From the IMG/VR virus record IMGVR_UViG_3300002641_000714: a DNA stretch of 64,000 nt; one strand, written 5' to 3'. Under the pieces are notes generated by a model. It made no database searches. It was not told the origin of the DNA and saw only the letters and a list, made by a program, of their open reading frames with translations. Shown here piece by piece: positions 3,390-61,434 of this stretch. The stretch is from a virus. Lineage: Duplodnaviria > Heunggongvirae > Uroviricota > Caudoviricetes. Position 1 is the stretch's first letter; every line of letters starts with the position of its first letter. The position numbers and the translations under genes were made by a program.

Positions 3390-3454
3390 CTTAATTAAAT
3401 CTTATAAATATTTAAAAATAATTTGTATCTATAATATTAATGGGAACAATATAT

Positions 3455-11695: not shown

Positions 11696-11847
11696 ATATC
11701 TTTTAAATTATTTTTTATTATTTAATTATTATAAATCTTTATAAAATAATGTTTCAAATTTTACAGTAAAAATGAGTAAAATTTTTCATTTTGCCCATTT
11801 TCTTTTTAATTAAAAATAAATATATTACAAAATAATACATAGTAAAA

Positions 11848-29022: not shown

Positions 29023-30480
29023 TTAAAATTTATAATGTTCATCAATATACTTATATAATGCATCTGGTGTATTCTCAACAATATTATCAAGAACTGCATC
29101 TTTAATAAGTTGTTTAATTTCACCGACTTGCCGACTTGGTGTCAAATGATAACGAATCATAATATCATCTCCAGATACACATGGTTGGAACAATCGCACA
29201 TAATCTTTTTGCTTAAGATCTTCAATACGTTGTTTCAATTCATCATATTGTTTCCAGAAATTTTTCTTCTTCTCTTCATGTTTCGTTGTAATATCGGCTT
29301 TTGCCAAAATTAACAACTCATCAATATAACCATTTGCATCATGAACAAGACGACGTACAGCAGCATCAGTTACACCCTCATCACAAATTGCTTGAGGCCT
29401 CATATGCATACGAACCATAGTCTCTACAAAGTCCATATTTTCATCCAGAGGCATCTTCATGCGGCTGAATATAGATTTTATCATCTTAGCTCCTACATAT
29501 TCGTGGTTGTCAAAAGACCAGCCTTTATGAGCATTCCAAGATCTGGTTTTCATTTTACCAATATCATGAAATAATGCGGCAATACGAAGCCATACATTAT
29601 CAGACTGTTTAGTAACATTGTCAAGTACATGCAAAGTATGCCAGAAAATATTTTTGTGGCCACGTACATACTCAGATACAGTTGAAGCTCTGGTAGTATC
29701 CATTTCTACCAATTCTGGTAAAAACTTTTTAAGTAAACCAAAATTTTTCAGAATTTCAATTCCGTCTTTTGCATGATTAGATGCCATGATTTTCATAAAC
29801 TCTGTAGTAATTCGCTCAGCAGAAATAATATCAAGACGATCTACATTTCGTATAATTCCATCTTGAGTTTTCTGATCAATTCCGAAATCAAGCTTGCACA
29901 TAAAACGAACAGCCCGAAGCATACGTAGTGGGTCATCACTGAATGTAGTATCAGGATCTACAGGAGTCCGAATAATTTTATTCTTCAGATCTTCAATTCC
30001 GTTAAACGGATCAACCAACTCACCAAAATGTTCAGCATTAAGTTGAATAGCCATAGCATTAATTGTAAAATCACGGCGAAGCTGATCATCTTCAAGAGTT
30101 CCATCCTCTACAATAGGTTTACGAGAACCACGTTCATATGATTCTTTACGAGCACCGACAAATTCTACTTCCCAATTTCCAAAATGAACCTGGGCTGTAC
30201 CAAAGTTTTCAAATATTGATAATTTAATATTGTCAAAATTTGATTCCCTTTTCAAATATTCTGTAAAAGCCTCTGCAATTTTCTGTCCCTTTCCGACTAC
30301 CACAACGTCAATATCATCATTGGGCCTGCCAAGAATTAAATCACGAACATAACCGCCGACAACATAACATGGATATTGTAAAGTGTCAGCAACCTTCTGA
30401 ATATTGCAAAGAACTCCAAAAATATCTGGAGTTTTTTGAATTTCTTTTAGAATTGTATTTTTATCAAATTGTGTTAACAT
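29023..30480 (-). CDS. cca: CCA-adding tRNA nucleotidyltransferase with an HD domain
   Basis: GGYVRDLILGRPNDDIDVVV and RRDFTINAMA (class-II nucleotidyltransferase head) plus HD-domain motifs HTLHVLD and HDIGK. Confidence 0.8.
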   Translation of the reverse strand: MLTQFDKNTILKEIQKTPDIFGVLCNIQKVADTLQYPCYVVGGYVRDLILGRPNDDIDVVVVGKGQKIAEAFTEYLKRESNFDNIKLSIFENFGTAQVHFGNWEVEFVGARKESYERGSRKPIVEDGTLEDDQLRRDFTINAMAIQLNAEHFGELVDPFNGIEDLKNKIIRTPVDPDTTFSDDPLRMLRAVRFMCKLDFGIDQKTQDGIIRNVDRLDIISAERITTEFMKIMASNHAKDGIEILKNFGLLKKFLPELVEMDTTRASTVSEYVRGHKNIFWHTLHVLDNVTKQSDNVWLRIAALFHDIGKMKTRSWNAHKGWSFDNHEYVGAKMIKSIFSRMKMPLDENMDFVETMVRMHMRPQAICDEGVTDAAVRRLVHDANGYIDELLILAKADITTKHEEKKKNFWKQYDELKQRIEDLKQKDYVRLFQPCVSGDDIMIRYHLTPSRQVGEIKQLIKDAVLDNIVENTPDALYKYIDEHYKF

Positions 30481-32418: not shown

Positions 32419-33081
32419 TTAAATAATATTAATTTGACATGATTTCATTACTTCAAGTGCAGCTTTGTGTTTTTCTGGAGTAACTCCAGCACAACATTTG
32501 CTATCCACTGTAATCTCTGCAAAATTATATGTATATGCTTTAAGAATAAGTGCATTAGAAACTACACAAATATCTGTACAGAATCCACACATTTCAATTT
32601 CCATTGGAATATAATTAATATGCCCATTATTTTTAATAATATGATTAATAAATCCATTGTTTTTAATATGTTGAAATGTTCGGTCTTTTTCAAAATTTAA
32701 AACGGTGTCTTTAAGAGTTGATGCAATTTCACCATCTTCAATATAAACTGGATCAACAGAACCAAATGTATTTTTACGAATATATTTAATTTCACATCCT
32801 TGTTTAGCTTTTACTAAGACTGCTTGATAAATAGATTCTTCAATTCGCCACCCTTCACTATTGACCATACAATGTTCAACCGGAAGTTTTTTACCTTCTG
32901 ATGTATCAAGATAATCAAAATAATGAGTGTCCATTGTTAGATAAATTGCATCACCATCAAATGATAAAATTTTGTCAACAATATTTAGAACTGCTTTTTG
33001 AGCATCTTTATTTGCTAATGTGCCAGTAATAAAATCATTCTGTGCATCAACTACTACTAAAACTTTAATCTTATTTTCCAT
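32419..33081 (-). CDS. pncA: Nicotinamidase (isochorismatase family)
   Basis: VLVVVDAQNDFITG and HCMVNSEGWRI match E. coli PncA (LLLVDLQNDF, HCVQNSEGAQL). Catalytic-Cys block IEMCGFCTDICV. Confidence 0.8.
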   Translation of the reverse strand: MENKIKVLVVVDAQNDFITGTLANKDAQKAVLNIVDKILSFDGDAIYLTMDTHYFDYLDTSEGKKLPVEHCMVNSEGWRIEESIYQAVLVKAKQGCEIKYIRKNTFGSVDPVYIEDGEIASTLKDTVLNFEKDRTFQHIKNNGFINHIIKNNGHINYIPMEIEMCGFCTDICVVSNALILKAYTYNFAEITVDSKCCAGVTPEKHKAALEVMKSCQINII

Positions 33082-35996: not shown

Positions 35997-36485
35997 TTAT
36001 TTGCTAAAAACTTCTTTAAATTCATTAATTGCTTTTATTTCATCTTCTGTTGCAAGACGATAACAATGATCTGTATGAACAGTTTCCCATTCTGGCGATA
36101 GATTTGTAGTGTTTACTGCATATTCTAAATAAGATTCGCCCATAATAGTTAATTTTACAATTCCTGCCAAATGTGCATTTGCAACATAATCACCTACTTC
36201 AAAACCTGTTGACAAACATATAATTTTATCACCATTTTCAAGAATACCATCATTTTTGCATAACAATAAATTAGAATCATTTTCTTTTTTGAAAATAAAA
36301 TATTCTATTTTATTTTCTTCAAAAATTCCAACACACCGAAGTTTAGAATCATCTGACTCTAATTTAAATTTTCTAATATATCCGAATCGTATATCTAAAT
36401 AAATATATTCATTATTTAAATATATTTCTTCATAATCTTCTTTATTTAAAACATTTGGTAAAAGTGTATAAACTGTTGTTTTCAT
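35997..36485 (-). CDS. Hypothetical protein
   Basis: 162-aa ORF with a TAA stop. The promoter-like motif is upstream at 36496-36548. Confidence 0.5.
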   Translation of the reverse strand: MKTTVYTLLPNVLNKEDYEEIYLNNEYIYLDIRFGYIRKFKLESDDSKLRCVGIFEENKIEYFIFKKENDSNLLLCKNDGILENGDKIICLSTGFEVGDYVANAHLAGIVKLTIMGESYLEYAVNTTNLSPEWETVHTDHCYRLATEDEIKAINEFKEVFSK

Positions 36486-36495
36486 AACTATATTA

Positions 36496-36548
36496 TTTTT
36501 AATTACGATGCAAAATTAATAAAATTATTTCAAACTAAAAAATAGAAG
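36496..36548 (-). promoter_or_regulatory. Conserved early/middle promoter-like motif
   Basis: ttttaattacgatgcaaaattaataaaattatttcaaactaaaaaatagaag. Confidence 0.5.
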
Positions 36549-36561
36549 TTAAAAAATAAAA

Positions 36562-36585
36562 GAGGAAACTCTTTCGAATTTCCTC
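36562..36585 (-). terminator. Terminator hairpin downstream of the putative capsid gene
   Basis: gaggaaa / tttcctc stem. On the minus strand it is followed by TTTTATTTTTT. Confidence 0.55.
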
Positions 36586-36632
36586 CTATTATCGAAATTA
36601 TTGTAATAATTTCTTAAGCTTTAACTTATTAA

Positions 36633-38552
36633 TTAAAGTCCTACGCAGTTTACATAGAATGTAATATATTGTGTTTCAGGATAGAAACCTGCATCTACAA
36701 GAGCGTAACGAGATTTAATCATAAGTTTTGGAGCCATTGTACCTTCAGCGATAATACGTACAACTTCAGCCATTACATATGGGCAGAAGTGAACACCTGG
36801 TTCATCTTTACCACCTTTACGACCAACTAATACACGAGTATCATTAGCTTTCATCAATGGATCAACGTAAACAGTTAAACCGCAAACAGTACCGATTGGG
36901 TAAAGTTGACCAGCAGTTTGTTTAACAGTATTCTCAATTGGTGAGAAGCTATAGTGTGCATCAGATTGTAACAATGTAGCAACACGGATATTAGTTACAA
37001 CGAATGTAGCAGCACCGTAACGACCACGTTGTTGGATCCAGTTAGAAGCAGCTAAGATGTTTGTGAAGATTCTCTTGATAAGAGTGTCACGGTTCTCGAA
37101 GTTAGCACCTTCAATAACACCCATTGGAAGTACTGGTATGCTAACCATTCTTTGAGAAGCATAACGTTGTTCTTGTTCAAGATATTCACCTTCTGGAATT
37201 GCATATGTAGCCCAGTCAAGATTACTAGGATTTTCTGCATCGAATTTTCTGAAGTTTAAGTTTAAGCATGCGCCAAGACCTTCAACTTCTACCATACGAG
37301 CGTGGTTTTTCCAACCAAGAGCAAACAAACGAGATGTGATGTGACGGTTGATAGTTTGAGAAAGTTCGTTTACACCAGCATTCTCAACAATCTTTAATAC
37401 ATCAATACCCCATTGTTTTTGGAGGTCAGTAACTTGTTCTTGAGTTACAGCACAAGCAACTTGGATAGTACCAACTTGGATGTTCTTTGTGAAGAGTTGT
37501 AATGAGATTTGACGAGCAGGAGTCATTTCACCTGTTGCACGGCTCATTGGTTCAAAAAGAACAGTACCATCTTGATATGTACCAGCCCATGCATCTTCAT
37601 CATGGTCACCAGCACCAGCAAAACCAAGAAGTTGATCCTCTAACATAGAGATTAATTTAGCACCTCTAACTGTAAGAGTAATTGCAGGAGTTTCACTTAC
37701 AAGTTCAACATCCTTTAAGAATGTTTCACCAAGAGATTGGTCGCCATCAACAACTTTGAACATTGGATCACCATCAATACGGCTCCAACCAATAAATTCA
37801 ACTGTAAGATGTTTATCAGCATCCTCAAATCTTACACCAGCTTTTAAACCAGCTTGTTCAAGCTCATATTTGTATTTAACAACTGGATCTGAACCTTGTG
37901 GAACAAGAACAGCTTTAAATGCATGTGGAAGTCCATAAAGACGGAAAGCAGCTGCGCCATTAATTGGTTTTTCTTCATTTGGCCAATTCTCTGGGAATGC
38001 TTTTGTAGAAGAATCAACAGCCATACGACGTTTGTTATAAACATGTGGATTAGCGCTGAATCTATCATATGCAGGAGTTGCACCATATGGTTGTTTGCTA
38101 CCGCTATATACATAGTCCATATAAGGAAGAACACCACTAGGACCTGCAAGAGGAGTAGTATTTACAAGTTCAAAACCAATAGTTTTAGCAGCAACCTTCA
38201 TTGCTAATGGAAGAAGTGCAGGGAATTTGTCACCTGAACCAAGAATTTTATCATCAGCCTATTGTGCGCCGGTCATTGCAGCCATTTTAGGAGCAACTAC
38301 ATTACCAACACCAAGAGTATTGTAAAGGTTGTTATATGGAGCATATGCACCACCGAACTCTGAGAATGCGTTAGCACCCATTTCAGGAGCAGATTCATTT
38401 AAGGATTTAGCTGTGTTGTGAGCAAGTTGACTCATCCAAGCAAGCTTTTCTGGATCCTTAACACCAGTTGTACGAGTAATCATTGGAGCCCAAGCTTCAT
38501 TGATCATTTGCTCTGCATTTTTAGCAGTAGCTTTTTGATTGTTTACTTTCAT
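36633..38552 (-). CDS. Putative major capsid protein (639 aa, 1 in-frame TAG)
   Basis: The track ORFs 38259..38552 and 36633..38201 share one frame ((38552-36633+1)/3=640) and are joined through the TAG at 38259-38261. The region is visibly more GC-rich with biased codons (ggt, gca, aac, ttc, atc), as expected for a highly expressed structural gene. The Gly/Ala-rich N-terminus is typical of processed capsid proteins. The late-type motif is upstream. The functional call is tentative. Confidence 0.5.
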
Positions 38553-38822
38553 ATTATTTTTTATAATTATTTTTTATTTAGTGTGTTATCTATAAAAAAG
38601 ATAACGGATAATCATTTTTCTAAATCTTTAATTAATCTTAATCATTTAATATGTCTATTTCGTAAATTTATTTTCTCTATACTAATAAATCTCTAAAATG
38701 AACGAGATGTGTTTTTGTTTCTTACATTACTCTTTCATATTAATTAAGACAGAAAGATAATTATATTTGTATTTTATTTATTTATTTTCTTAAAAAATGT
38801 TAAAAATGCAAAAATGCATATT

Positions 38823-39551
38823 TTATTCTTCTTCATCTTCAATACCGCCATTATTAAATATATTCTCTAAATCAATAGCTAATTCACGAACAGCTAATAA
38901 ATTTATTTGTTCATCATCTGTAGAAATACATAAAATAGAACCAAAGGCTTTACCATGAATATCTTTAAGATTTAATACGGCATATGATTTAGCATTAATA
39001 TAATCCATTTGTTGTGCTAAATATCTATCAGCTTTTTCAAATTCTTCTTGTGTATAATAAAGCAATTTGTTTTTGCCTAAATCTTCTGATAACAAAATAT
39101 CATAACGTGCAACAATATCATCACGGAATTTTTCAATAGCTACATATTTTGCATTGTCTGTTGCTACTTCAAGAGTCATATCAAAACGACAAAATTGAAC
39201 ACCTGTCATTACGTTTTCAGAACCATTATGGTATTCAATTAAAAATATATATTCTGAATTAGTCAATGAAATATATTCTTGCATTGTATGTTTTGCTAAT
39301 GCATATGCTTGACGGGATGCCTCAAAATTTGCTCTGTGTGTAGCTTTATTTCTTTCATCTCTGTCATCTAATGAATTAGTTACCGCTTCAGATACAGATT
39401 TTTGTTGCATTGAATTATTTATAAAAGAGGTTACCACTGGGCCCATTAAGATCCATACCACAGCAATAGTGAAAAGTGTTTTGAACCACCATTTATCACC
39501 CCATTTATCAAACACTTTTGTTAAAAAATTCTCAGATATTTTTGTTTCCAT
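38823..39551 (-). CDS. Membrane protein (one TM helix), hypothetical
   Basis: TM helix WWFKTLFTIAVVWILMGPVV. TAA stop. Confidence 0.55.
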   Translation of the reverse strand: METKISENFLTKVFDKWGDKWWFKTLFTIAVVWILMGPVVTSFINNSMQQKSVSEAVTNSLDDRDERNKATHRANFEASRQAYALAKHTMQEYISLTNSEYIFLIEYHNGSENVMTGVQFCRFDMTLEVATDNAKYVAIEKFRDDIVARYDILLSEDLGKNKLLYYTQEEFEKADRYLAQQMDYINAKSYAVLNLKDIHGKAFGSILCISTDDEQINLLAVRELAIDLENIFNNGGIEDEEE

Positions 39552-39661
39552 GTTTTATTGATATTTTGTTGATTAACATTCTTTCTTTTATTATTTATTA
39601 AAGAATTAAAAATAAAAATTTTATTTTTTAATAATATATAAAATTTAATAAATATATTGAT

Positions 39662-40483
39662 ATGAAAAACTATAAACAAATATTAGAAGCAATTAATCGT
39701 GGTATTAAATTTGCATTAGACGATTTTGAAGATCAAGATGATATTCAAGGTTAGGATAATAGTAAAGTTAAGTATAAAGGCGGAATTAAAGACTGGTTAG
39801 ATTTAATGAGTGATGTTGTTGATTTAGGACTACCTTCAGGAACTCTTTGGTGCAAGTATAATTTGGGATGTGAAACTGAATTATTAAATGAAGAAGGTGA
39901 AAATAGTGTAGCTGATTGGTGGCAAGGTGATTATTTTGCCTGGGGTATTAATCAGCATAATGATTTTTTTACATGGGGGTCTTATGATTATTCAGACTGG
40001 GCTATAAAAATGTTGCCTAATTTAAAAACAGAAAATTGGGTTCTTAAATTATTTAAATATTGTTATGAAAAAGATACAGTTGCATCTATATGTGATGAAC
40101 CTGATAATAAAATGAAACTTGATTTGGAAGATGATGCAGCTTATGTAAAAAATAACAAATACTGCATACCGTCTACAGAACAATTTCAAGAATTATTAGA
40201 TAATACAAAACATAAATTTGTTGCAAATTATAATAATATTTCCGGACTAAACGGTATATTATTTGCATCTATCTATAATCAAAATACAATATTTTTTCCG
40301 CTTGCAGGTTATATGAATGAAGAAAATATCAGAAGAAAAAATACACAAGGTTTTTATTGGACATGTGATTTAAGCCCAAAATATCAAACATGCGCAAATT
40401 CATTTAATTTAACAAAGAAAACAGTAGAAGTTGGAAGTTATAGACGTGACCAAGGTTGTTCAATAAGGCCTGTATTAAAATAG
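39662..40483 (+). CDS. Leader-family-1 protein A with a DUF1566-like domain (1 in-frame TAG)
   Basis: ATG at 39662. Leader MKNYKQILEAINRGIKFALDDFEDQDDIQG, then TAG (39752-39754) exactly where paralogs E and F have Gln (QGQ), then DVVDLGLPSGTLWCKYNLG, YFAWG, IPSTEQFQELL and a C-terminal SIRPVLK. Confidence 0.65.
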
Positions 40484-40501
40484 TAAAAAAAACTCTAAAA
40501 T

Positions 40502-41341
40502 ATGAAAAATTATAAACATATATTAGAAGCTATAAATAGAGGAATTAAATTTGCATTAGATGACTTTGATGATAATGAAATTCAAGGTTAGATTAGTAGT
40601 AAAGTTAATCATCAACATGGAACTAAAGAATATCTAGACTTTGTGAATGAAGTTGTTGATTTGGGGCTTCCTTCAGGAACTTTGTGGTGCAAATATAACT
40701 TAGATGTTAATCCTAATCAGTTAACTAAACCTGAAGACTGGTATGGAAAATATTATGCATGGGGCGAATTAGGAGGAAATAAAACTAATAAAGATGGTAT
40801 AATTTATTTTTATTGGTCTAATTATAAATTTGGAAAATATGATTTAACTAAATATTGTAATGATTCAGAACATGGATTAAATGGTTTTACTGATAATTTA
40901 ACAGAACTTCAACTAGAAGATGATGTTGCATATCAAAACAAAAAACTTTATAATTATAAATTCCATATACCAACTAAAGAACAGTGTGAAGAATTATTGA
41001 AATATACTAATAATTATTGGGTTGTTAATTATAATCCTAATAAAACTATTCATAATCCAAAAGATGATGGCGGAATTCAAGGTTTGGATGGTGGAATATT
41101 TGAAGGAAGAAATGGAAATCAATTGTTTATTCCAGCAGCCGGATTCCGATAGGATTTATGTCGCTATCATGTTGGTTTTTATGGTCACTTGTGGTCTTCT
41201 AGTCTTTACTTAAAAGATTGTAGCAATGCTTACTGCTTAAGCATTAATTCAAACATTATCAATATATACAATGAGGAGCATACATATAATTATGGAGAAC
41301 GTATATATGGTTATAGTATTCGTCCAGTATTAAATTTATAA
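40502..41341 (+). CDS. Leader-family-1 protein B with a DUF1566-like domain (2 in-frame TAGs)
   Basis: Leader MKNYKHILEAINRGIKFALDDFDDNEIQG-TAG. The track ORF 40643..41152 is internal. Read-through of the TAG at 41150 gives the conserved C-terminus ...GYSIRPVLNL and a TAA at 41339-41341. Confidence 0.65.
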
Positions 41342-41354
41342 ATTAATTATTTAA

Positions 41355-42554
41355 ATGAAAAACTATAATAAAATATTAGAAGCTGTTAATAGAGGAATTA
41401 AATTTGCATTAGATGACTTTGATGATAATGAACTTCAAGGTCAAGTTAGCGGTAAAATCAATAATAAAAGTAATCTTAAAGATTGGCTTGAGTGGCAAGA
41501 ATGGATTAAAAAAATTGAAGCTAGAAGTTTAAAAACAGTAAAAGATATATAGGAATTAGCAGATTTTTCAAAATCAAGCAGATTTAAATATGAGGTTGGG
41601 AATAACCGTAATTTATTAATATCTTTAATTAATTATATAATTGAAATTGATTCAACTGCTGATTTAAACTGGATTGACGTATCTAAAATAACAGATATGA
41701 CACAATTATTTGATAATAGTAAATTTAATGGTAATATATCTGAATGGGATGTGTCTAATGTTGTAACAATGCGTCAAATGTTTATATTTTCTCATTTTAA
41801 TGGTAATATATCTAATTGGAATGTATCTAATGTTAAAGATATGCATAATATGTTCAGATGCTCTTATTTTAATGGTGATATATCTAATTGGAATGTATCT
41901 AATGTTAAAAATATGTCTGGTATGTTTAAAGATACATTTAATTTTAATAAACCATTAAATAATTGGAATGTTTCTGGTGTTGAAAATATGAGTGAAATGT
42001 TTCACGGATCTAGAAGATTTAATCAACCACTTAATAATTGGAATGTTTCTAATGTTAAAGATATGGCACAAATATTCTGTAATTGTAAATTTAATCAAGA
42101 TATTAATAATTGGGATGTTTCTAATGTGGAAGATATGCGTTGTATGTTTATGCAAAATCAATATTTTAATAAACCGCTTAATAATTGGAATGTTTCTAAT
42201 GTTAAAATGTTTGCAAGTATGTTTTGCGCATCTATATTTAATTAGCCGATTGGAAAATGGAATATGTCTAAAGCAATATCTCTTAGTGGAATGTTTAAGG
42301 GTTCAAGATTTAATTAGAATATTAATAATTGGAATGTTTCTGGTGTAAAATAGATGCATGAAATGTTTTGTAATTCCCGTTTTAATAAACCATTAGATAA
42401 ATGGAATGTTAGCAATGTTTGGGATATGGAATACATGTTTCAATCATCACAATTTAATCAAGATATATCAATGTGGAATATAAATCCTAATGTAAAAACA
42501 ATTTGTATATTTAAAGATGCTGTTATATAGAAAGAATATAAACCAAAAGTATTA
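41355..42554 (+). CDS. Leader-family-1 protein C with about 10 DUF285-like repeats (5 in-frame TAGs)
   Basis: Leader with QGQ (CAA). The track fragments 41355..41552 and 41697..42245 are in the same frame. Repeats have the form FNGNISNWNVSNVKDMHNMF. TAGs fall at repeat positions that are Q in sister repeats (FN-TAG-PIG vs FNQPL). TAA at 42552-42554. Confidence 0.65.
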
Positions 42555-42564
42555 AGAAAATATA

Positions 42565-43501
42565 AATGATAAATTATAAACAAATATTAGAAGCGGTTAA
42601 CAGAGGTATTAAATTTGCTTTAGATGACTTTGAAGATCAAGAAGATATTCAAGGTTAGATTAATAGTAAGGTTAATAATAAAAGTAATATTAAAGAATAT
42701 TTAGAATGGAATAAATGTCTTGATTTATTATTTAAGAATGTTGATACTAATTATTTTAATAAAATGGTTAAATTATCAAAAATAATTGGTATACAATATA
42801 AAGTTAATGATATAGATACATTAAAAAATATTATAAATTGGTCTTGCCAGATATGTCCGAATAATGATGCAAATTTAAATTGGTTAGATGTTTCTGAATT
42901 AACATCAATGTATGGTTTATTTGGAAATGATTATACTAAAAATTTTAATGGTGATATTTCTAAATGGGATGTATCTAATGTTGAAGATATGAATTATATG
43001 TTTTATAAAAGCAATTTTAATGGTAATATTTCTAAATGGGATGTGTCAAAAGTTAAACATATGAATTATATGTTTTCACACTCTATATTTAATGGTGATA
43101 TTTCTAATTGGAATGTATCAAAAGTTGAAACTATGATTGGTATGTTTAAAGAAGTTAGACCATATGATTACCCATTGGATAATTGGGATGTATCTAATGT
43201 TAAAAATATGTCTGACATGTTTAGTGATTCATGGTTTAACCAACCATTAAATAATTGGGATGTATCTGGTGTTGAAAATATGGCACATATGTTTTCTGGC
43301 TCACAATATGATTAGCCATTAGATAAATGGGATGTATCTAATGTTAAAAATATGGATTCAATGTTTTCTGCATCTCATTTCAGACAAAATATTAGTAATT
43401 GGAATATTAGTAAAGACTGTAATACTAATAATATGTGGAGATTAGGCATGTAGTATGATATTAATAAACCGCCAAAAACAAGATTAAGATATAGACGTTA
43501 A
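42565..43501 (+). pseudogene. Leader-family-1 paralog D, frameshifted in its leader, with a DUF285-repeat body
   Basis: From ATG 42565 the sequence MINYKQILEAVN is followed by an extra C (gttaacCagaggt at about 42600) that puts RGIKFALDDFEDQEDIQG-TAG-... and the repeat body (track ORF 42764..43315, read on through a TAG to the TAA at 43499-43501) in the +1 frame. This is a sequencing error, a pseudogene, or expression from the internal start at 42764. Confidence 0.4.
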
Positions 43502-43502
43502 A

Positions 43503-43532
43503 AAATCTCTAAGATATATTTCTTAGAGATTT
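43503..43532. terminator. Bidirectional terminator hairpin
   Basis: Perfect 12-bp stem aaatctctaaga / tcttagagattt between the plus island and the minus polymerase gene. Confidence 0.6.
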
Positions 43533-43536
43533 TCTT

Positions 43537-45084
43537 TTAGAATAATGATGAAACATAACATAAATCTGAAGTAAAAGGTTGATATCCGAGAATTTCAATA
43601 ATTCTGTTTAACGGTGTTAAAACTAAATCTTCAAATTGTTGGTTATAATCAATCGGCAAAGCAAATTCTAATGGATACTTTCCAGGTGTAAAACCGAAAA
43701 CAGGATAATTAGGATCTGTAGTTTTATAGAATTTTACCTTGTCACGAGTTTTAATTGTTTCATATTTTAATTTATATTTCTTATTCTTTGGATTATTTAA
43801 TATATAATTATAAATTCCTGCAGCTTTAACATGAATTGGACAATGCTCGCCAAACACAAAATTATTTTTATCATCTAGAATAAATTTATCATAATCAGAA
43901 ATCTGAACACTTTTGCAAATATCTTCCGGATTTTGTTTAATAAAATCATCTTTAAATTTCTTAAGCATTGCATAAATATCATCAAATTCCGGTGCATTAT
44001 TATGTGTAATATACCAATTCATAATGCTTCTAATAAATTGATCTTGACATTTTTTTGCAAATGGTGGAGTAGAACCTTGAATTAATTCAAGTCCCTTATA
44101 GATAACATGTTCACCCGGCGTTACATAGATATTTGGTTCAAGAAAACATTCTGACATTGCATAATGTTTCTTTGCAATCATAATTGCAGTATCAGCAACT
44201 TTTTCAAGTTCAAGATTTTCAAGATTAACATCACAGTTGAATTTTTGTGCATACTCATCATATTTTTTATTCATATATGGGCCAATTCCGTAATTCCACA
44301 TATCAACAACAAAACGTGTCGCTTTATTAAAATCGTGTATTCCTAAAAATGTTGTAACACGCCCAAATTCAACATAAATTGAATCAGTATCACCATTTAT
44401 TGTTAAACTACATGTTGGATCATCTTCCAAATATGATGTTTTGCCCATATATGCAAACGGGTTTTCCTTAGAATTTAATGGATTTTTAGCTTTTAGTGCT
44501 AATGAATTAAGTGGTTCATTTTGTGTAATTTTGCCTTTATTAATTTCAAATTCTTTTATTTTTTCGTAAGGTTCTCCAAGATATTCGCCAAAAGATGTTT
44601 TAACTGAAACTTTTTTAAGTAAAGCTTTCATTTCTTTTGATAAATTATCTTGATCTTTAACTTCATTTTTACTTATTGGCAATTTAACTAAAACCCATTG
44701 TTTATCCGGTGTTTTAGCATAAAAATCATCAGTGGTTTCAATATCATATTTTTCCATCCACTCGAATAAAGGAACATAAATAATTCTGTTATATTCTTCT
44801 TGTGATTGAAAAATTCCCCTAAAATACTTATTGACACAGTTTTCTGAATAGTGGTTCAAATCCTGTCCTTGAAGTGTAATTGATTCAGCGACTGCGGTAT
44901 TATGACCAACGAAATACTTACTTGCGCAACTTCCATATACCGAATTAATAAATGTTTTAATAGCCAATTGTTTAGTTTCGTAATATCCTGATAAACTTTT
45001 ACACTCATTAATTGCATTATATAATTCTTCTTTAGAACAATTATCCGGATCTATTTCTATAAATTTGCTTTTATAAACTGCCAT
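43537..45084 (-). CDS. Family-B DNA polymerase, C-terminal fragment (motifs B and C plus thumb)
   Basis: KTFINSVYGSCA (KxxxNSxYG, motif B) at residue ~43 and INGDTDSIYV (motif C). The exonuclease domain and motif A are absent from this ORF and from the adjacent ORFs. Confidence 0.75.
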   Translation of the reverse strand: MAVYKSKFIEIDPDNCSKEELYNAINECKSLSGYYETKQLAIKTFINSVYGSCASKYFVGHNTAVAESITLQGQDLNHYSENCVNKYFRGIFQSQEEYNRIIYVPLFEWMEKYDIETTDDFYAKTPDKQWVLVKLPISKNEVKDQDNLSKEMKALLKKVSVKTSFGEYLGEPYEKIKEFEINKGKITQNEPLNSLALKAKNPLNSKENPFAYMGKTSYLEDDPTCSLTINGDTDSIYVEFGRVTTFLGIHDFNKATRFVVDMWNYGIGPYMNKKYDEYAQKFNCDVNLENLELEKVADTAIMIAKKHYAMSECFLEPNIYVTPGEHVIYKGLELIQGSTPPFAKKCQDQFIRSIMNWYITHNNAPEFDDIYAMLKKFKDDFIKQNPEDICKSVQISDYDKFILDDKNNFVFGEHCPIHVKAAGIYNYILNNPKNKKYKLKYETIKTRDKVKFYKTTDPNYPVFGFTPGKYPLEFALPIDYNQQFEDLVLTPLNRIIEILGYQPFTSDLCYVSSLF

Positions 45085-45110
45085 ATAATTTTATTAATTT
45101 TATTTTATAA

Positions 45111-45293
45111 TTATATGTTTTTATTATTTTTTGTTTTAATTAAATATTCAATGAACTTCCAAAAATGTTGTTCAAGTAAAACTTCATTATATGTTTCGTC
45201 TATTTTTTCTAAACTAGATTTTGGAACTCCAGAAATCTCATATATTTTTTGTTTAAAATAATCTAAATCAATTGTTTCCATTATATTTCTCAA
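45111..45293 (-). CDS. Small hypothetical ORF (TTG start; uncertain)
   Basis: 60-aa ORF with a TAA stop. It overlaps a possible read-through extension of the HNH gene. Confidence 0.3.
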   Translation of the reverse strand: MRNIMETIDLDYFKQKIYEISGVPKSSLEKIDETYNEVLLEQHFWKFIEYLIKTKNNKNI

Positions 45294-45366
45294 AATAAAA
45301 TTTTATTTCTTGCGGATGTTCTTCTACTAAACCATACTTAATCATCATTCGATATGTAAAATTTCG

Positions 45367-45579
45367 CTAGCAACATATCAATCCATGTTGTAATTCTTCT
45401 CTAAATCCTTCTATATCATTGGAGCCTTTTCTAAAATTACATGCTCTGCATGATGGATTTAGATTTTCTATAGAATCATCACCTGTATAATCTTTTGGTA
45501 ATAATTTTTCTTTATCTTTTTCAGACCAATTATGAAATACAGGTTTAATGTGATCTACCTGCATATCTTTATAATCCAA
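45367..45579 (-). CDS. HNH homing endonuclease
   Basis: VDHIKP...ENLNPSCRACNFRKG is an HNH motif. It lies immediately upstream of the truncated polB. The stop is TAG. If read through, the frame stays open for about 33 more codons to a TGA at about 45268. Confidence 0.7.
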   Translation of the reverse strand: MDYKDMQVDHIKPVFHNWSEKDKEKLLPKDYTGDDSIENLNPSCRACNFRKGSNDIEGFREELQHGLICC

Positions 45580-45604
45580 TTCGCATCCGCAATATGCGCA
45601 GTGT

Positions 45605-46072
45605 TTATTGTATTTGTTCCAAATTTGTTCCCTCTATATTTTGTTTAGTTTCATTATTATCTTCTGCTAATTTTTTAAGTGCAAATAGAACAATAGATTC
45701 CATTGAATCATTATATGTTTGACATGAACATTTATATATTTCATTTTCACTTACCCACCATATTCCATGCCAAAGTGGGAAAAAATATTCAGTAGTTTCT
45801 ATTTCTTTTCTTTCAATAAATCTATGAGGTTCAACCCATATTTTCAGATTTTTTATTTCTCTCAACCAATCACATATTTGTGATAAAGTTGGTGCAGACA
45901 TTACTGCATTATAGATTGCATTTTCACATTCTTCATTCCAGTCTCTATATTCGCCTTCTTCATATAATTCATATTCTGCATTTGATGTTTTTGCTAAATA
46001 GAAACTATTGGTTTTTTCGTGAAAACCAACTTTTTGCAATAATTTAGCTATTTCAATTGATACTTTTTTCAT
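45605..46072 (-). CDS. Hypothetical protein
   Basis: 155-aa ORF with a TAA stop. Confidence 0.5.
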   Translation of the reverse strand: MKKVSIEIAKLLQKVGFHEKTNSFYLAKTSNAEYELYEEGEYRDWNEECENAIYNAVMSAPTLSQICDWLREIKNLKIWVEPHRFIERKEIETTEYFFPLWHGIWWVSENEIYKCSCQTYNDSMESIVLFALKKLAEDNNETKQNIEGTNLEQIQ

Positions 46073-48524: not shown

Positions 48525-48619
48525 GTTCTAATTACAATTTTACTTAATTATTATATATAAAAATAATGAATTGTTTCTTAAATAAATATATTGTATAAAT
48601 AAAAAATATAATTAAATAT

Positions 48620-49123
48620 ATGAAAAGCGTTAGCAAAAAAGCTTTATATGAAAGCATTATGACTTCGGTTGCTAAACAAGTAAAGAAAACATTGAATGAG
48701 AATAATAATGTGAATGATAATGCAGATTAGTTGAAGGAGTTAATTGCAGAGCATGAAAGTAGGCTTAGAGTATTAAAAAGAAAGCTTGCAGTATTAGAAA
48801 GTGAAAAGGAAATAATAGATGCGTTTGCAAAAGGTATTAATGACTGGACTGATTGGCATGATTCACATTATAGCAATTATATTCGTGAAGGTGAAGAAGG
48901 AAAAGAGTTAATAGAAGCCAGTGGTGGAATATGTAATTATATATATGAAACTGGTTGTAAAGATATGTATTCGTTTATTGAAGATTGTTTAGATGATATA
49001 GATATAGATATAGATGATGATGATTTTGAATTTGATGAAGATTTTATAGAGGATTTTATTAAAGAACATGATGAAGAAATTAATGGTGTATTGGCATCAG
49101 ATTATGGATATGTCTTTGAATAA
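48620..49123 (+). CDS. Leader-family-2 protein, acidic (1 in-frame TAG)
   Basis: ATG 48620. Leader MKSVSKKALYESIMTSVAKQVKKTLNE, TAG at 48728, then track ORF 48731..49123 in the same frame. The late-type motif cttaaataaatatattgtataaataaaaaat is upstream. A terminator hairpin lies at about 49164-49192. Confidence 0.6.
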
Positions 49124-49250
49124 TGATTAATTATATAATTTATTAAAAAATATAAAATTAAAGAAATCGGATTTCTTTCCTTTTTATTTCTTATTATTTT
49201 TGAAATTTATCACAATAAATAAATATATTATAAAAAATAATATAATAATT

Positions 49251-49661
49251 ATGAAAAGAGATAACAAAAAAGCTTTATATGAAAGCATTATGACTTCTGT
49301 AGCTAGAGAAGTTAAAAAGACTTTAAATGAAACTGTAGTAGATACAGAAGATAATGAAACTGAGACAATCAATCATTGTTTAGATGAGATTAAACATTGT
49401 TTGTATAATGGCTGTGATTTTACACAATATAACAAGTATATTGATAGTAAAAAATTTTATGTAATAACTGGATGTATATATGATTGTATTTAGCAAGCTA
49501 GCAATATTGCAAAAAATCTTACAACACTCGCTGAAAATTCTGCAGTATATAAATAGAATTTAAATAATAGTATATCTATATCTATGTTAGAAAAATGCAG
49601 CAATCAATTAGAAGATCTTGATAGTCTTATGAGACGGTTAAAACGCGCATTAAATTATTAA
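49251..49661 (+). CDS. Leader-family-2 protein (2 in-frame TAGs)
   Basis: Leader MKRDNKKALYESIMTSVAREVKKTLNE. The TAG at 49491 is read through (second TAG at 49554) to the TAA at 49659-49661. Upstream motif acaataaataaatatattataaaaaataatat. Confidence 0.55.
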
Positions 49662-49790: not shown

Positions 49791-50696
49791 ATGCGAAAAA
49801 ATTCTGATTTATATAATAAAATAATGGAGCAAGTTGCAAAAGAAGTTAAACGTTCTTTAAATGAAGTTGACGATATTGCTCCAGTTAAACAAGAAGTTTC
49901 TGGTGAAGTTTATTTAGTTCGCTGCGATGGAATGAATAAGAAAACATTAGATATGTTATCATCTAAATTACCAGCATTTGATAATTATGGTTCCGGTTCT
50001 ATCAGAGTAACATGCAAAACTCATGAAGAAGTTATTAAAGTCATTTCTTTATTGGTTAATTCAAATGTTTTAGATATTGATAATTCTCTTGGACAATCTC
50101 CTAGAATTTCAATTCAAAAAGTTAATAAGAATTCTGTTAATGATTCTGTTAATGAAAATCGTCAAGAGTTATCACGTGATTATATTCAAATGAGCAAAAT
50201 TAAAACACCAAGGCAACGAGTTAAATTTGAAATAATCCAAAAAATTAATAAAGGTGAAATTCCTGCAACTCCTGAAGCAATCCGTGCAGAAATTGATAAA
50301 TCCGGTGAATGGATAGATCGTTCTGAACCAAGAATTCAAATGGATGTTGATCTTATTATGAGAAAAACTACTGATGAAATAATGGAAGGTGATTTTATAA
50401 CAGATTTCATATATTCAAAAGATAATTATGAACCTGGTGAATTTAGTAATGGAATGGAAGCTGCAGAAAATCATGTTAAATGGTTAAAAAAGCATGGGCT
50501 TGGTGTAAGGGTTGAAGAAGGTAGATATTCATTTAAATATTATATTCATTATAGCACTAAAAAACAATTTAATGATTTAGTTCAATGGATGGCATGGCAT
50601 TGTGGATTTACTGATACAATAACAAATCCACCATCAAAAGAAGATAGAAAATATTTTGAAGAAATTGTTAAATCAGGAAAGAAAACTACATGGTAA
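49791..50696 (+). CDS. Leader-family-2 protein (301 aa)
   Basis: Leader variant MRKNSDLYNKIMEQVAKEVKRSLNE. TAA stop and no TAG. Confidence 0.6.
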   Translation: MRKNSDLYNKIMEQVAKEVKRSLNEVDDIAPVKQEVSGEVYLVRCDGMNKKTLDMLSSKLPAFDNYGSGSIRVTCKTHEEVIKVISLLVNSNVLDIDNSLGQSPRISIQKVNKNSVNDSVNENRQELSRDYIQMSKIKTPRQRVKFEIIQKINKGEIPATPEAIRAEIDKSGEWIDRSEPRIQMDVDLIMRKTTDEIMEGDFITDFIYSKDNYEPGEFSNGMEAAENHVKWLKKHGLGVRVEEGRYSFKYYIHYSTKKQFNDLVQWMAWHCGFTDTITNPPSKEDRKYFEEIVKSGKKTTW

Positions 50697-51859: not shown

Positions 51860-51956
51860 TATTTAATAAAACATTTTTATATTATAAATTATATACAAAA
51901 ATTTGAAATGGTTTAATCTAAATAAATATATTGATAATAAAAAATAATTTAATAAT

Positions 51957-52403
51957 ATGAAAAAGATAGTAAAAAAAGCTTTATATGAAAGCATTATGAC
52001 ATCTGTGGCTAAAGAAGTTAAGAAAGTATTGAATGAATCAGATTCATTAAGTGATTCATTAAATGATATTAAAAAACAACTTATTGAAAATGGTGATGGA
52101 ATATATTTTGTATATAGCGATTATATATCACGTGATGCAGCATACCTTTATGTTGTTAAAAATGGAGAAATTATTCATCAAGAACACCCAAGTTGTTTTA
52201 TGACACTTAATTATTATGGCGATGGTAAGCCATGCGGTATTATTCCTTCATTAAATAAATTAATTCGTGAATATTATGAATTAAATTTATATGTAGCAAA
52301 TAAAGGCTGGTATACATTTCCGCAAAAATGGAGAGAATGTGATTGGACTACAACACTTGAAAAATATGGTATTAATTCTACACTAATAAATATTGATATT
52401 TAA
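51957..52403 (+). CDS. Leader-family-2 protein (148 aa)
   Basis: Leader MKKIVKKALYESIMTSVAKEVKKVLNE. TAA stop. Upstream motif ctaaataaatatattgataataaaaaataat. Two tandem hairpins follow, at about 52413-52437 and 52466-52496. Confidence 0.6.
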   Translation: MKKIVKKALYESIMTSVAKEVKKVLNESDSLSDSLNDIKKQLIENGDGIYFVYSDYISRDAAYLYVVKNGEIIHQEHPSCFMTLNYYGDGKPCGIIPSLNKLIREYYELNLYVANKGWYTFPQKWRECDWTTTLEKYGINSTLINIDI

Positions 52404-57209: not shown

Positions 57210-57980
57210 TTACAAATTTATTACTGGACGAATTGGAAGCCCTTTGTAACGAGCGCACTAAGCACAAAAAATTTCAGGTTTTAATTTATTAGTATTAAAA
57301 TTTAATGTCATGCCATATTGCATATTATTAATTTTAGAATTAATAACTGTATTAGTCCAATAATTTCCATTTGTAGGATATTCATTTACATCTTTTTCTC
57401 CACATTTTTTACATGCTGGAAAAAATAATTCATTACCATTTTTCCCTATAAATAACCAGCCATCTAAATAATATACATTTCTATATTTTTCAACTGGTTT
57501 ATTTATTGTATTTTTTATTAATTCATTAAACTATTCAGGTGTTGGTATGCAAAACTTTAAATTACTATTCTAATACGCAGCATCATCTTCAGATAGTAAT
57601 GTATTTAAATTATCTTTATTATTATATTTAGTTAATTCTTTTCCAAATTTATATGTTTCCCATGAATATTCTGGCTTTGTCCCTAATTCTGTTTCACCCC
57701 AAGCAAAGTAATCACCATACCAATCTAAATATGTAGTATAATAAGGATCTTTATTTAAAAACCTCCAATCACACCCAAGATTATATTTACACCAAAGAGT
57801 TCCTGAAGGAAGTCCAAGATCAACTACTTCATTCATTAAATCTAACCATTCTTTAGTTCCACCTTTATACTTAACTTTACTACTAGTTTGACCTTGAATA
57901 TCATCTTGATCTTCAAAATCATCTAAAGCAAACTTAATGCCTCTATTAACAGCTTCTAATATTTTATTATAGTTTTTCAT
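57210..57980 (-). CDS. Leader-family-1 protein E with a DUF1566-like domain (3 in-frame TAGs)
   Basis: The track ORF 57570..57980 (leader with QGQ, DLGLPSGTLWCKYNLG, YFAWGE) ends at a TAG. Read-through gives ...CIPTPEQFNELIKNT... and the family C-terminus GLPIRPVINL, with a TAA at 57210-57212. Confidence 0.6.
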
Positions 57981-59959
57981 ATATTATTAATATCTTCCTT
58001 ATTTACAACAGCTCTTATTTGTAATCCAACACATCTATCAATATCTTTAATTGACGGTTTTACATTTTTGAATATATTTAATTCATATGCCATGTATTCT
58101 TTACCTTTAATATTTTCACATGCCCAATAATAACCGCCATATTTATAGATACTTAATTTATCTTTTTCCATAATATTTGTATATGGCATAAATAATTTTT
58201 CTTTATTAATTTTACTGATAAATGTAATACCGTTTAATCCTGTAATTCCTTGATAATCCTATTCAAATTTTATTTTAGTATTTTTTAATAATTCTTCAAA
58301 TTGTGCTTTTGATGGAATACAAAAATTAAAATTAAAAGATTTAGTTAATTTTTGAACAGCTGCATCATCATCTGGTATAAGCGTATTTAATTTATCAAAT
58401 CTGACATTATATTTAGGATTATTACCATATTTAGTTAATTTATCCCATGCACCGTTTGCATACTTATAAGTTGTCCAATCATATTGTGCTTTTGGTTCCA
58501 ATTCACCCCAAGCATAATAATTACCTATCCAATCTTTAGCATTATCTAATTTATCAATATTAACACCTAAATTATATTTGTGCCATAATGTTCCTGAAGG
58601 CAATCCTAAATCAACAACTTCTTTCTTTATATCTAAATATTCTTTCCAACTACCTTTATAATGGTTTGTTTTACTGCTAGATTGACCTTGAAGTTCTTCA
58701 TCATTATCAAAATCATCTAAAGCAAAACGAACATTATTATAATTAAATGATTCATTTAAATTTACTTTATTTTGATATGGACGTAATGTTACTTGCATTA
58801 TATAACATACTGTTGGAAATAAATTTTTCCATAAATAATTTTTGGGATCTGTTTTCTTTTTAAGATCAAATACGACAGGATCATTATTATTTAAAATAAA
58901 ATTAATATATAATTTCTTATTTTCAGCAAAATTAACTGTAAAATAAAAACCAAAATCAGTTTTTTCTAATCCAGTAATTTCAATAGTATCAACTAATGCA
59001 TCTTTTAATAATAATGTTCTTGTAATATTTTTATAAATTAATTTTTCATATTCTTTATTAAAATAGTCAAGTGCAAGATCAATACGTTTTTCTCTTGGCA
59101 CCGGTAAACGTCCAAGTGAATCTGTTTCTTCTCGGAAATATGTATATGGTATCATTAAAAAATGTAAATTCTAAATATATGTATTATATTCATTAATTTG
59201 TTCATTATATTCATCTATTTCATTTTCCGGATGATTGTTTATTTCTGCATAATTACGATTATCTTGCAAATCATCAACTAATTTTTGATAATGCTACTGT
59301 AATTTATAAAATTCTATATATTTTTTATTACTTTCACCTGTATTATATTTGTCATAACAATCATTTATAAAATCAACTAAATATTGTTCAAGATCCATTT
59401 TTATTTCATAGGTATCTTCTAATAACTTATTTTCAATTCCAATTTTATTATTTTCTTTGCTTTGTAATGAATTAGAATTTAAACTGTATTTTAATTCATA
59501 ATATTTTTTAACAGATTGATAACGTTCTAATAATGTTTTATCATTAGAAGACAAATCCAAACAATCTCTTGATTTAATATTAATTGTTGCCGCATTTTGT
59601 TTAATATATTGTGTAAATGTAGAACGTGTCTGAATTGTATTTTCTAAATATTCTAATAGATATTTAATAAAATTTTTAGGTTCATACATTAAAAATGATT
59701 CAAGATCCTGATACTTCTATGCACCATTTATCATTCCATAAAAATCATGAATATCATTTTGAGTATATTTAGTTTTATTATTTCTTAAATATTGAAGATA
59801 ACTATATATTTTTTTAATAATATTTTCAGATTTACCGCATTTTTCTTTTGGTAAACCATATTTTAAACCTACTTCTAATTTTTCTGATTTAGAAGGAACC
59901 TAATCTTTGATATGTAATAAATCTTGTCTAACTTCAAATTCTGAAATTTTATTTTCCAT
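57977..59959 (-). CDS. Leader-family-1 protein F: long N-terminal extension, internal leader remnant, DUF1566-like domain (about 5 in-frame TAGs)
   Basis: Track fragments 59294..59689, 58259..59155 and 57977..58189 are co-linear in one frame, and the frame stays open further upstream to an ATG at about 59959. Contains ...NVRFALDDFDNDEELQGQSS...VVDLGLPSGTLWHKYNLG...YYAWGE...CIPSKAQFEELL...ITGLNGITF...GLQIRAVV. Its TGA (57977-57979) overlaps the ATG of gene E. My coordinates are within about 1 nt. Confidence 0.5.
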
Positions 59960-60001
59960 AATTTTATATATACATTTCTATTCAATATATTTATTAAAAC
60001 A

Positions 60002-61188: not shown

Positions 61189-61434
61189 TTTAAATATAAA
61201 TTAATTTTTATTTTTTCGACTTAATAATTGTATAAAATATTTCAAAAAAGGTTTCAATAAAATTAAACTTAAACTTAAAAAATTCTTAATAAAATAAAAT
61301 TCAAAAATCTTAAATAAAATAAATCACTAAATCATTAAATCTAAACATCAAAACCAGTTGCAAGAACCAATAAAAAGTTCTGCGTTGGTTTGTCTGTTTT
61401 GTATATTATATTTATTTATAAAAATAAAGTTTAT

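Follow-up and report, generated by a model that had tools for sequence, protein, structure and literature searches.

The subject of this analysis is a family of paralogous genes in a 64,000-nucleotide stretch of DNA (hereafter the window, always meaning the whole stretch) from the Caudoviricetes record IMGVR_UViG_3300002641_000714 of IMG/VR, the products of which begin with the same short peptide, here called leader 1, and continue into different cargo domains. Four of these genes, A to D, lie in tandem on the plus strand at positions 39,662 to 43,501, and two more, E and F, lie on the minus strand (Table 1). Leader 1 is a real and modular element that is selected as a peptide and confined to this phage group, and it is best read as an address tag for incorporation into the virion. 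A tblastn search of the whole window returned exactly six copies of the leader (E 1e-17 to 1e-46), in agreement with the four plus-strand and two minus-strand members listed in a first-pass annotation made from the letters alone, while the frameshifted copy that it also listed was not found by that search. The leader is N-terminal in five genes (MKNYKQILEAINRGIKFALDDFED) and is present in F as an internal remnant; the internal position had been recognized, but F retains only the second half of the leader in decayed form, and the extension ahead of it measures about 415 and not about 310 amino acids. This N-terminal extension has no PHROG or NCBIfam match, and F may have arisen by gene fusion so as to do without the address tag, or may represent another way to mount the same binding module. 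Both of the ATGA overlaps reported between members are real, the one between C and D lying at 42566-42569, one base off from the position first given (42565), and the one between F and E at 57977-57980.

The leader-1 genes are marked by their coding and by a promoter-like motif. The window has a G+C content of 28% and, when TAG is read as a sense codon, contains long, clean genes throughout. That TAG encodes glutamine is seen directly, as the IQG-TAG of A, B and D ('DDIQG-TAG-DNSK') aligns with the LQGQ and IQGQ of C ('NELQGQVSGK') and E ('DDIQGQTSSK'). As had been noticed, members carry many TAG codons (two to six in frame per gene), and there are zero in most neighbouring replication genes. 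Across the window TAG use is concentrated in a subset comprising the leader families, the capsid and sheath genes and 3440-5304; in Lak phages it has been described as a mark of structural-protein-coding regions (PMC6784885). The 14-nt motif TAAATAAATATATT has nine matches in the window against 1.5 expected, a number reached in none of 100 shuffles, and it stands ahead of A, of F and of four genes in a second leader family that has five (leader 2, discussed below). The late-type promoter motif first placed before the members is thus well supported, but among A-F it stands before A and F alone, the leading genes of their clusters. Its position at 59984-59997 on the minus strand makes 59959 the likely start of F. 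It was also observed that the copies stand 4-27 nt upstream of leader-family gene starts, that one lies upstream of the gene for a gp32-like single-stranded DNA-binding protein (SSB), that the copy at 36396 is antisense within a gene, and that the motif is similar to the T4 late promoter TATAAATA.

With regard to its source, positions 36000-46000 gave zero nucleotide matches in a phage collection (megablast), the metagenomic contigs with leader-1 homologues reach 490 kb in length, and the leader gave weak matches to Prevotella Lak phages in the same collection, along with chance matches and none to T4 (tblastn); the window is therefore from an AT-rich, alternatively coded myophage of the Lak-megaphage kind. 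It encodes a tail sheath and a major capsid protein of the T4 Gp23 family, the latter matching T4 gp23 itself at E 2e-4 (BLASTP), and the capsid gene lies 1.1 kb from the A-D island and is transcribed divergently from it.

Evidence that leader 1 is a functional peptide comes from its pattern of change. Residues I7, L8, E9, A10, N12, G14, I15, A18, L19, D20, D21 and F22 are invariant in the alignments (A1 and A3), and over the first 24 codons most paralogue pairs show four to seven synonymous against one to four non-synonymous codon differences, the synonymous ones including the two-step exchange CGT/AGA at Arg13, GGT/GGA/GGC at Gly14 and GCA/GCT/GCG at Ala10. These mostly synonymous differences place the constraint on the peptide and not on the DNA. 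It could be argued that the 5' ends, which share 76-84% nucleotide identity among paralogues, are conserved as recombination cassettes, translation-initiation elements or gene-conversion tracts without any role for the peptide, as the tandem arrangement and a recombination hotspot in the island might suggest; but the peptide is kept through synonymous changes such as CGT to AGA, its core is retained in distant relatives in spite of an identity of only 42-55% over the whole leader, and the recombination breakpoints seen against L002, a near-identical metagenomic relative, do not fall at the leaders. Conservation at the DNA level is largely refuted by the synonymous-site pattern and is hardly credible. 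A profile search of 1.84 billion representative proteins, of the kind proposed in the first-pass annotation, identified 244 cluster representatives that carry leader 1; of the 150 matches listed, nearly all have it at the very start of the protein (residue 1), the few offsets looking like mis-called starts. A match of the leader to phrog_13598 (E 0.006) was too weak and was left unused.

The leader also appears to be structurally separate from what follows it. The structure prediction suggested for the cargo is available as an AlphaFold2 (AF2) model of P0027, a protein 92% identical to A (94-sequence alignment, mean predicted local distance difference test score, pLDDT, of 87.6), in which residues 2-20 form a helix with low pLDDT, residues 21-41 are disordered and a confident globular domain begins at about residue 50. 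Since the helix is unpacked and followed by a disordered stretch, the leader is not part of the fold, and in the model leader 1 is a free helix on a disordered acidic tether. It is polar and amphipathic, with neither a hydrophobic core nor a GG, and a Pfam scan of 48 open reading frames (ORFs) of the window found no peptidase or transporter family; a Sec or lipoprotein signal peptide and a double-glycine leader were rejected on these grounds. Bacterial homologues of the lectin-like cargo domain carry Sec or lipoprotein signals where the phage copies have the leader, and the position is therefore one that suits an address signal.

Behind leader 1 the cargo varies, as first described, but within two classes only. 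The DUF285-like repeats were confirmed in C and D (PF03382, E 5e-97 and 3e-95 respectively, with four matched stretches in each), and eight further leader-1 proteins match the same family. For the domain shared by A, B, E and F no Pfam family matched at E <= 0.01, and TIGR02145 matched A only (E 0.003, 18 bits, below the cutoff of 41.65). Its assignment to a DUF1566-like fold nevertheless proved right at the level of the fold: some bacterial proteins among its 5052 homologues carry PF07603 (DUF1566) and PF09603 (FISUMP), to which it is linked through such intermediates and a shared C-type-lectin-like fold, and the top BFVD matches are phage proteins named FISUMP or DUF1566. The BFVD matches include such domains within long phage proteins and a Peptidase_S74 protein, Peptidase_S74 being a domain of fibre proteins. 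Besides the matches given in Table 1, the lectin-like domain matched FGE-type proteins, invasin, intimin and many animal C-type lectins, while PDB sequence searches with the capsid protein and with member B returned nothing. Nearly all cargos of 73 leader-1 proteins from 37 related loci, and of another 141 representatives, belong to the two classes, with P0215 (HExxH motif) and P0244 as the only clear exceptions, and a diverse effector set is therefore not what these genes encode. The cargo of P0215, a metagenomic protein with leader 1, contains LIHELAHAIMG, is neither lectin-like nor DUF285 and has no Pfam match; the motif suggests a zinc-metallopeptidase-like protein. Eight leader-1 genes stand in tandem on a 490-kb contig, and a 380-kb contig has at least 16 of them at no fewer than 8 places in the parts examined.

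The island had been called hypervariable, and comparison with related genomes had been recommended. Against L002 the flanks are 99-100% identical and 40000-42000 only 81-95%, and gene B is the most divergent gene (amino acid identity 76%, dS 0.48, dN/dS 0.28). The divergent 2-kb patch lies within a 10.7-kb stretch that is otherwise 99-100% identical, and spans the 3' end of A, B in its entirety and the 5' half of C. Local divergence of this extent, together with these dS and dN/dS values, points to recent recombinational replacement by a diverged allele or paralogue under purifying selection and not to hypermutation, so that local variability is upheld but 'hypervariable' fits only in part. 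The Pfam scan found no reverse-transcriptase family in the window, no dedicated search for template repeats having been made; a diversity-generating retroelement (DGR) target was rejected on this result, the whole-gene divergence from L002 and the dN/dS of 0.28.

Since the first-pass annotation likened the start of the leader to the capsid-targeting sequence (CTS) of T4, the latter was translated from AF158101, which gives MKTYQEFIAE/A for IPII and IPIII, exactly as first given, and MKTFKEF...ITE/A for IPI (a slash marks the known or putative cut). In the T4 CTS residues 4 and 7 serve targeting and residues 8 and 10 processing (PMC9026906). Leader 1, MKNYKQILE/A, satisfies the T4 (I/L)-x-E rule with I-L-E-A at residues 7-10, of which rare variants occur in more distant members, and in 56 other proteins of the window [IL]xE occurs at residues 6-12 in five and [IL]xE[ASG] in none. 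The likeness thus holds for a site at the T4 position, but the conserved block of leader 1 runs on for 15 residues past that site. Searches of the six-frame window and 37 loci with T4 gp67, gp68, gp21, gp22, gp23 and gp24 returned nothing (phmmer), Pfam profiles being required to detect the relationships to T4 head genes. A gp21-family prohead protease was found in relatives: that of Lak-C1 has 584 amino acids and the gp21 signature, and matches Peptidase_S77 (PF03420) at E 9e-15 and T4 gp21 at E 2e-10 (phmmer), and its homologues lie on two IMG/VR contigs rich in leader-1 genes, L065 and L066. The co-occurrence with a gp21-like protease that had been proposed as a check is therefore found in both of these relatives, and on two of the contigs leader genes lie no more than 4 kb from the protease gene. 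In L065 the protease, a leader-2 gene and a leader-1 lectin gene follow one another within 4 kb, and in L066, Lak-C1 and L062 leader-bearing lectin or DUF285 genes lie within 5 kb of the protease. In these relatives a long acidic (D/E/S-rich) region and a C-terminal domain form a fusion protein with the protease domain. At 43-1914 on the plus strand the window itself encodes an extremely acidic, low-complexity protein of 623 amino acids without a family match, which resembles the acidic region of that fusion in composition only and may be a scaffold or core-like protein.

The lectin cargo is also found behind at least three other short leaders on huge-phage contigs, and (I/L)-x-E occurs at residues 7-11 in every phage leader type, often followed by A, S or G. 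Leader 2 is near-invariant for a length of 27 residues, all copies found end at (L/I)NE, and behind it, in related loci, stand at least 25 unrelated cargos of 80-400 amino acids that diverge abruptly; those in the window are small, unrelated and without a family match. Leader 2 therefore has the CTS feature of cargo that diverges straight after the cut, which leader 1 does not. The motif [ILV]NE occurs five times per protease at conserved positions in two diverged lineages (0.43 expected, P ~8e-5), at about 19 ahead of the catalytic domain and at 178, 190, about 215 and about 230 after it, and the first 53 residues of the capsid protein contain both MINE/A (residues 17-20) and SLNE/S (residues 50-53). 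For the latter, T4 gp23 gives weak support, as the N-terminal BLAST segment is offset by 18 residues and puts the equivalent of the gp23 cleavage at about residue 83. To our knowledge, all gp21-type proteases studied cut after Glu. These occurrences suggest that phi-N-E, or more broadly (I/L)-x-E, is the cleavage motif of the gp21-like protease and that leader 2 may be a cleaved head-targeting propeptide; of the two leaders, leader 2 has the sequence that better suits a candidate capsid-targeting propeptide cut by the protease. Leaders 1 and 2 have in common the lectin cargo, the promoter motif, TAG-rich coding, proximity to protease and capsid genes and the T4-like site, and these common features support a head-targeting role for leader 1 as well.

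Table 1. Features of the window and of related loci (match rows give the value of the match under remarks; sites are putative).
Feature	Position	Strand	Remarks
A	39662..40486	+	274 aa; leader 1, acidic linker, C-type-lectin-like (DUF1566/FISUMP-like) domain; 2 in-frame TAGs
Leader-1 core of A	39662..39733	+	codons 1-24, MKNYKQILEAINRGIKFALDDFED
B	40502..41341	+	279 aa; leader 1 and lectin-like domain
Leader-1 core of B	40502-40573	+	
C	41355..42569	+	404 aa; leader 1, helical spacer, ~10 DUF285 repeats; 5 in-frame TAGs
Leader-1 core of C	41355-41426	+	
D	42566..43501	+	311 aa, starts MINYKQ; leader 1 and ~7 DUF285 repeats
Leader-1 core of D	42566-42637	+	
E	57210..57980	-	256 aa; leader 1 and lectin-like domain
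Leader-1 core of E	57909-57980	-	
F	57977..59959	-	660 aa from MENKISEF; ~415-aa extension, half-leader RFALDDFDNDEELQGQ, lectin-like domain
Promoter-like motif TTAATAAATATATT	39645..39658	+	4 nt upstream of A; heads A-D cluster
Promoter-like motif TTAATAAATATATT	59984..59997	-	upstream of F; heads F-E pair
Other TAAATAAATATATT copies	11813-11826, 48579-48592, 49216-49229, 51919-51932, 2034-2047, 36396-36409	+	
Other TAAATAAATATATT copy	61405-61418	-	
Leader-family-2 genes	11848-13035, 48620-49123, 49251-49661, 49791-50696, 51957-52403	+	MKK.NKKALYESIMTSVAKEVKKALNE
Major capsid protein, T4 Gp23 family	36633..38552	-	Pfam PF07068, E 6e-35; phrog_138
Release-factor gene	21940-23046	-	PCRF and RF-1 domains, GGQ motif
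gp21-family prohead protease, L065	3683-5464		
gp21-family prohead protease, L066	3683-		
gp21-family prohead protease, L058 (Lak-C1 MK250029)	2648-4402		
Leader 2			MKKSNKKALYESI..VAKEVKKALNE; site ALYE/S at residues 7-11
Leader 3			MKTINSFISEKLKITK, MRSLKDYILEGFKLGK; site MKTINSFISE/K
Leader 4			MINYIQEIIENFDF, MNSLIKQLIESKFNF; site MNSLIKQLIE/S
Short Lak-C leader			M.K..K.ILMESLFDEE; site ILME/S
Lectin-like domain match: Legionella Lcl C-terminal domain			7.8
Lectin-like domain match: Bdellovibrio fibre-tip Bd2740			7.5
Lectin-like domain match: Treponema TvpA			7.1
Lectin-like domain match: Bordetella phage Mtd			6.3

The reading that we favour, tentatively and as one that falls a little short of being probable, is that leader 1 mediates T4-like targeting to the prohead core. 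Leader 1 would then act as a portable N-terminal tag, in which residues 2-20 form an amphipathic helix and about 20 further residues a disordered acidic tether, and would recruit C-type-lectin-like DUF1566/FISUMP and BspA-like DUF285 modules into the virion, the megaphage having a T4-type head. The leader would bind the prohead scaffolding core, of which the gp21-family protease with its fused acidic region would form part, the shell would assemble round this core, and the protease would then cut after Glu at I-L-E/A (residues 7-10), so that the proteins would end inside the head, available for ejection with the DNA. A bolder extension, in which at least four interchangeable T4-CTS-like leaders pre-load Lak-type capsids with dozens of recombining lectin and leucine-rich-repeat (LRR) binders and many small leader-2 cargos, to be injected as a library of binders of host factors or defence proteins, is doubtful and distinctly harder to credit than the targeting itself.

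A number of observations weigh against targeting to the prohead core. The conserved block INRGIKFALDDFED runs 15 residues beyond ILE/A, to residue 24, and is left unexplained by a T4-like CTS of 10 residues. There is no conserved second cleavage site before the domain: a cut at the junction of linker and domain was considered and rejected, phi-x-E being present there in about 25% of members and the Glu also belonging to the domain of bacterial homologues. I-L-E differs from the phi-N-E common to the protease, the capsid protein and leader 2, the argument from that motif was made after seeing the data, and E9 is replaced by D or K in some members (ILDA in P0027, ILKA in L005). The Pfam scan of the 48 ORFs found no protease family in the window, and a protease in the window's own genome is predicted from its relatives. 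Most cargos are acidic, with isoelectric points (pI) of 4.9-6.1, while T4 internal proteins are basic. In every characterized case the cargo folds bind ligands outside the cell (Lcl, invasin, intimin, Bd2740, Mtd and DGR targets), in phages this fold is found at fibre tips or in tropism proteins, the title of a paper on Bacteroides phages linking DUF1566 DGR targets to tropism, and the BFVD matches cited above lie in long phage proteins and a Peptidase_S74 protein. Finally, the literature searched contains no cultured relative or virion proteome of this phage group, and the abstract of a metaproteomics paper speaks of crAss-like phages; nor does the Lak literature searched mention the leader-1 family. 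The earlier proposal of proteins that are either targeted into the capsid and ejected or displayed on the surface as adhesins thus gains from the T4-type head genes and the I-L-E-A site and loses by the longer block and the non-diverse cargo, and sequence analysis cannot choose between an internal and a surface location.

The surface location, the main rival reading, supposes that the leader helix is not cleaved but docks on the outside of the virion, at a capsid hexamer, a decoration protein or a fibre hub, with the tether displaying the binders, so that the particle would be coated with mixed adhesins for host capsule or mucus glycans or equipped with accessory receptor-binding proteins. It is normal for proteins that bind receptors to be built from a common anchor and an exchangeable binding head, and Klebsiella phages of the KP32 type carry short conserved N-terminal anchor peptides on their secondary depolymerases. 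This reading is favoured by the cargo folds and their BFVD context, by the secreted proteins and lipoproteins among the bacterial homologues, and by the link to tropism in Bacteroides phages made in that paper's title; it would also suit the geometry of a tethered domain, a conserved block that exceeds a cleavable CTS, a recombination hotspot in an otherwise identical genome, which is typical of host-range genes, and the near-exclusive association of leader 1 with two binder classes, also, in the shortened form ILMESLFDEE, in the Lak-C lineage. On the other hand, the proteins have no shaft, trimerization or baseplate-attachment domain, and a helix of 20 residues is a small anchor. Uncleaved anchoring leaves to chance the presence of (I/L)-x-E(A/S) at the T4 position in at least four leader types, the lectin cargo also occurs behind leader 2, an apparent cleaved propeptide, and the genes lie among replication genes and beside protease and capsid genes and not in tail modules. 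On balance we consider display on the surface rather unlikely, although it deserves to be taken seriously.

A location in the virion would not be needed if the helix were a short coiled coil, comparable to the neck of collectins or tetranectin, or a dock for a non-virion partner, and the proteins acted in the cell or after lysis. The hydrophobic residues L8, I11, I15, A18 and F22 do follow an a/d-like pattern, and such a role requires no synteny with structural modules. However, the helix amounts to about two heptads, contains the invariant Gly14 and is followed by a disordered linker of about 20 residues that the collectin neck lacks; one helix would have to serve two unrelated folds; the cargo is found behind four or more unrelated leaders, a better fit to addressing; and TAG-rich coding and the common promoter motif group the genes with late genes of structural type. 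A soluble or oligomerizing role is accordingly regarded as very unlikely.

Other genes of the window include those for the gp32-like SSB, a family-B DNA polymerase and NAD-salvage enzymes (Pfam scan). The last are genes of NAPRTase and isochorismatase/nicotinamidase type, which lie, with a gene of the CCA-adding/poly(A) polymerase family, at 26557-27723, 32419-33081 and 29023-30480, all on the minus strand; their presence is consistent with a report whose title concerns NAD+ systems of jumbo phages from the gut (PMC11662467). The polymerase ORF (43537-45084, minus strand, 515 amino acids) looks like the C-terminal polymerase part only, and immediately upstream of it an HNH-endonuclease-like ORF (45268-45744, minus strand; CAYCG...DHIKP...CRACNFRKG) contains three TAGs; the polymerase gene may be split by a homing element. 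ARAGORN found no tRNA, hence no suppressor tRNA, in the 64-kb window.

The guts of humans and animals commonly contain Lak-type megaphages, which are uncultured and annotated for the most part with hypothetical genes. In this regard, hundreds of megaphage genes can now be defined as an address tag joined to a binding module, and a probable head protease has been identified together with a candidate cleavage motif. The prediction can be checked by metaproteomics without culture, by looking for N-termini at Ala10 or after LNE. If the proteins are internal, the T4 internal-protein strategy would operate at the scale of a giant phage with binder scaffolds as cargo, and would offer packaging tags for engineering; if several leaders pre-load the capsid, they would be the first portable packaging tags for an uncultured megaphage, and their motifs would give the specificity of the protease; and if the proteins are on the surface, they would represent a new way to coat a phage with mixed lectins. 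Either location bears on host range and persistence in the gut.

Among known systems the T4 CTS, which gp21 removes from IPI, IPII, IPIII and Alt, is the nearest parallel. Like leader 1, it occupies the extreme N-terminus of otherwise different late proteins, begins MK-x-Y and has a hydrophobic pair, x-E and A/S at residues 7-11; in both lineages a Gp23-type capsid protein and a gp21-family protease are present, the latter found here in relatives of the window, and several paralogous carriers occur per genome. In T-even phages, too, the genes of the internal proteins (IPs) vary, and the CTS alone is conserved (PMC3012670). Unlike the CTS, the leader-1 block comprises 24 residues instead of 10 and extends past the putative cut, its sequence shows no statistically detectable likeness to T4, with no T4 record among the tblastn matches of the leader in the phage collection, its cargo consists of two binding folds of 200-350 amino acids, mostly acidic, in place of small diverse proteins, and it is present in dozens of copies per genome as opposed to three or four; moreover, cleavage and packaging are here predicted from sequence. 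As regards receptor binders with a C-type-lectin (CLec) fold (Mtd, TvpA, TaqVP, Lcl and Bd2740), leader 1 has no counterpart in them. The leader-1 proteins also differ from this group in their apparently recombinational divergence, with a dN/dS of 0.28 and no reverse-transcriptase family in the scan of 48 ORFs, and in having no fibre shaft or trimer domain. KP32-type depolymerases of Klebsiella phages and the K1-5/SP6 tailspikes also combine a short conserved N-terminal peptide with an exchangeable head, with several per virion. These are trimeric beta-helix tailspikes on a known adaptor, whereas leader-1 proteins look monomeric, have no known adaptor and number dozens of paralogues. Giant phages provide a further parallel: gp53 and gp54 of SPN3US are head paralogues with an identical N-terminal propeptide, in which there is an x-E cleavage motif (PMC5694885). 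Families A and B of SPN3US gp53/gp54 and the inner-body proteins of phiKZ resemble the leader-1 family as large paralogue families of a giant myophage head that is served by a protease homologous to T4 gp21. They differ in domain content (pfam12699 and others versus CLec and DUF285), in motif (A/S/G-x-E versus I/L-x-E or phi-N-E) and in having been demonstrated by virion mass spectrometry, the leader-1 family being known from its sequences. In conclusion, what is new in comparison with the T4 IPs and the giant-phage families is the leader sequences themselves, the presence of several interchangeable leaders, the binder-fold cargo and the dozens of copies per genome.

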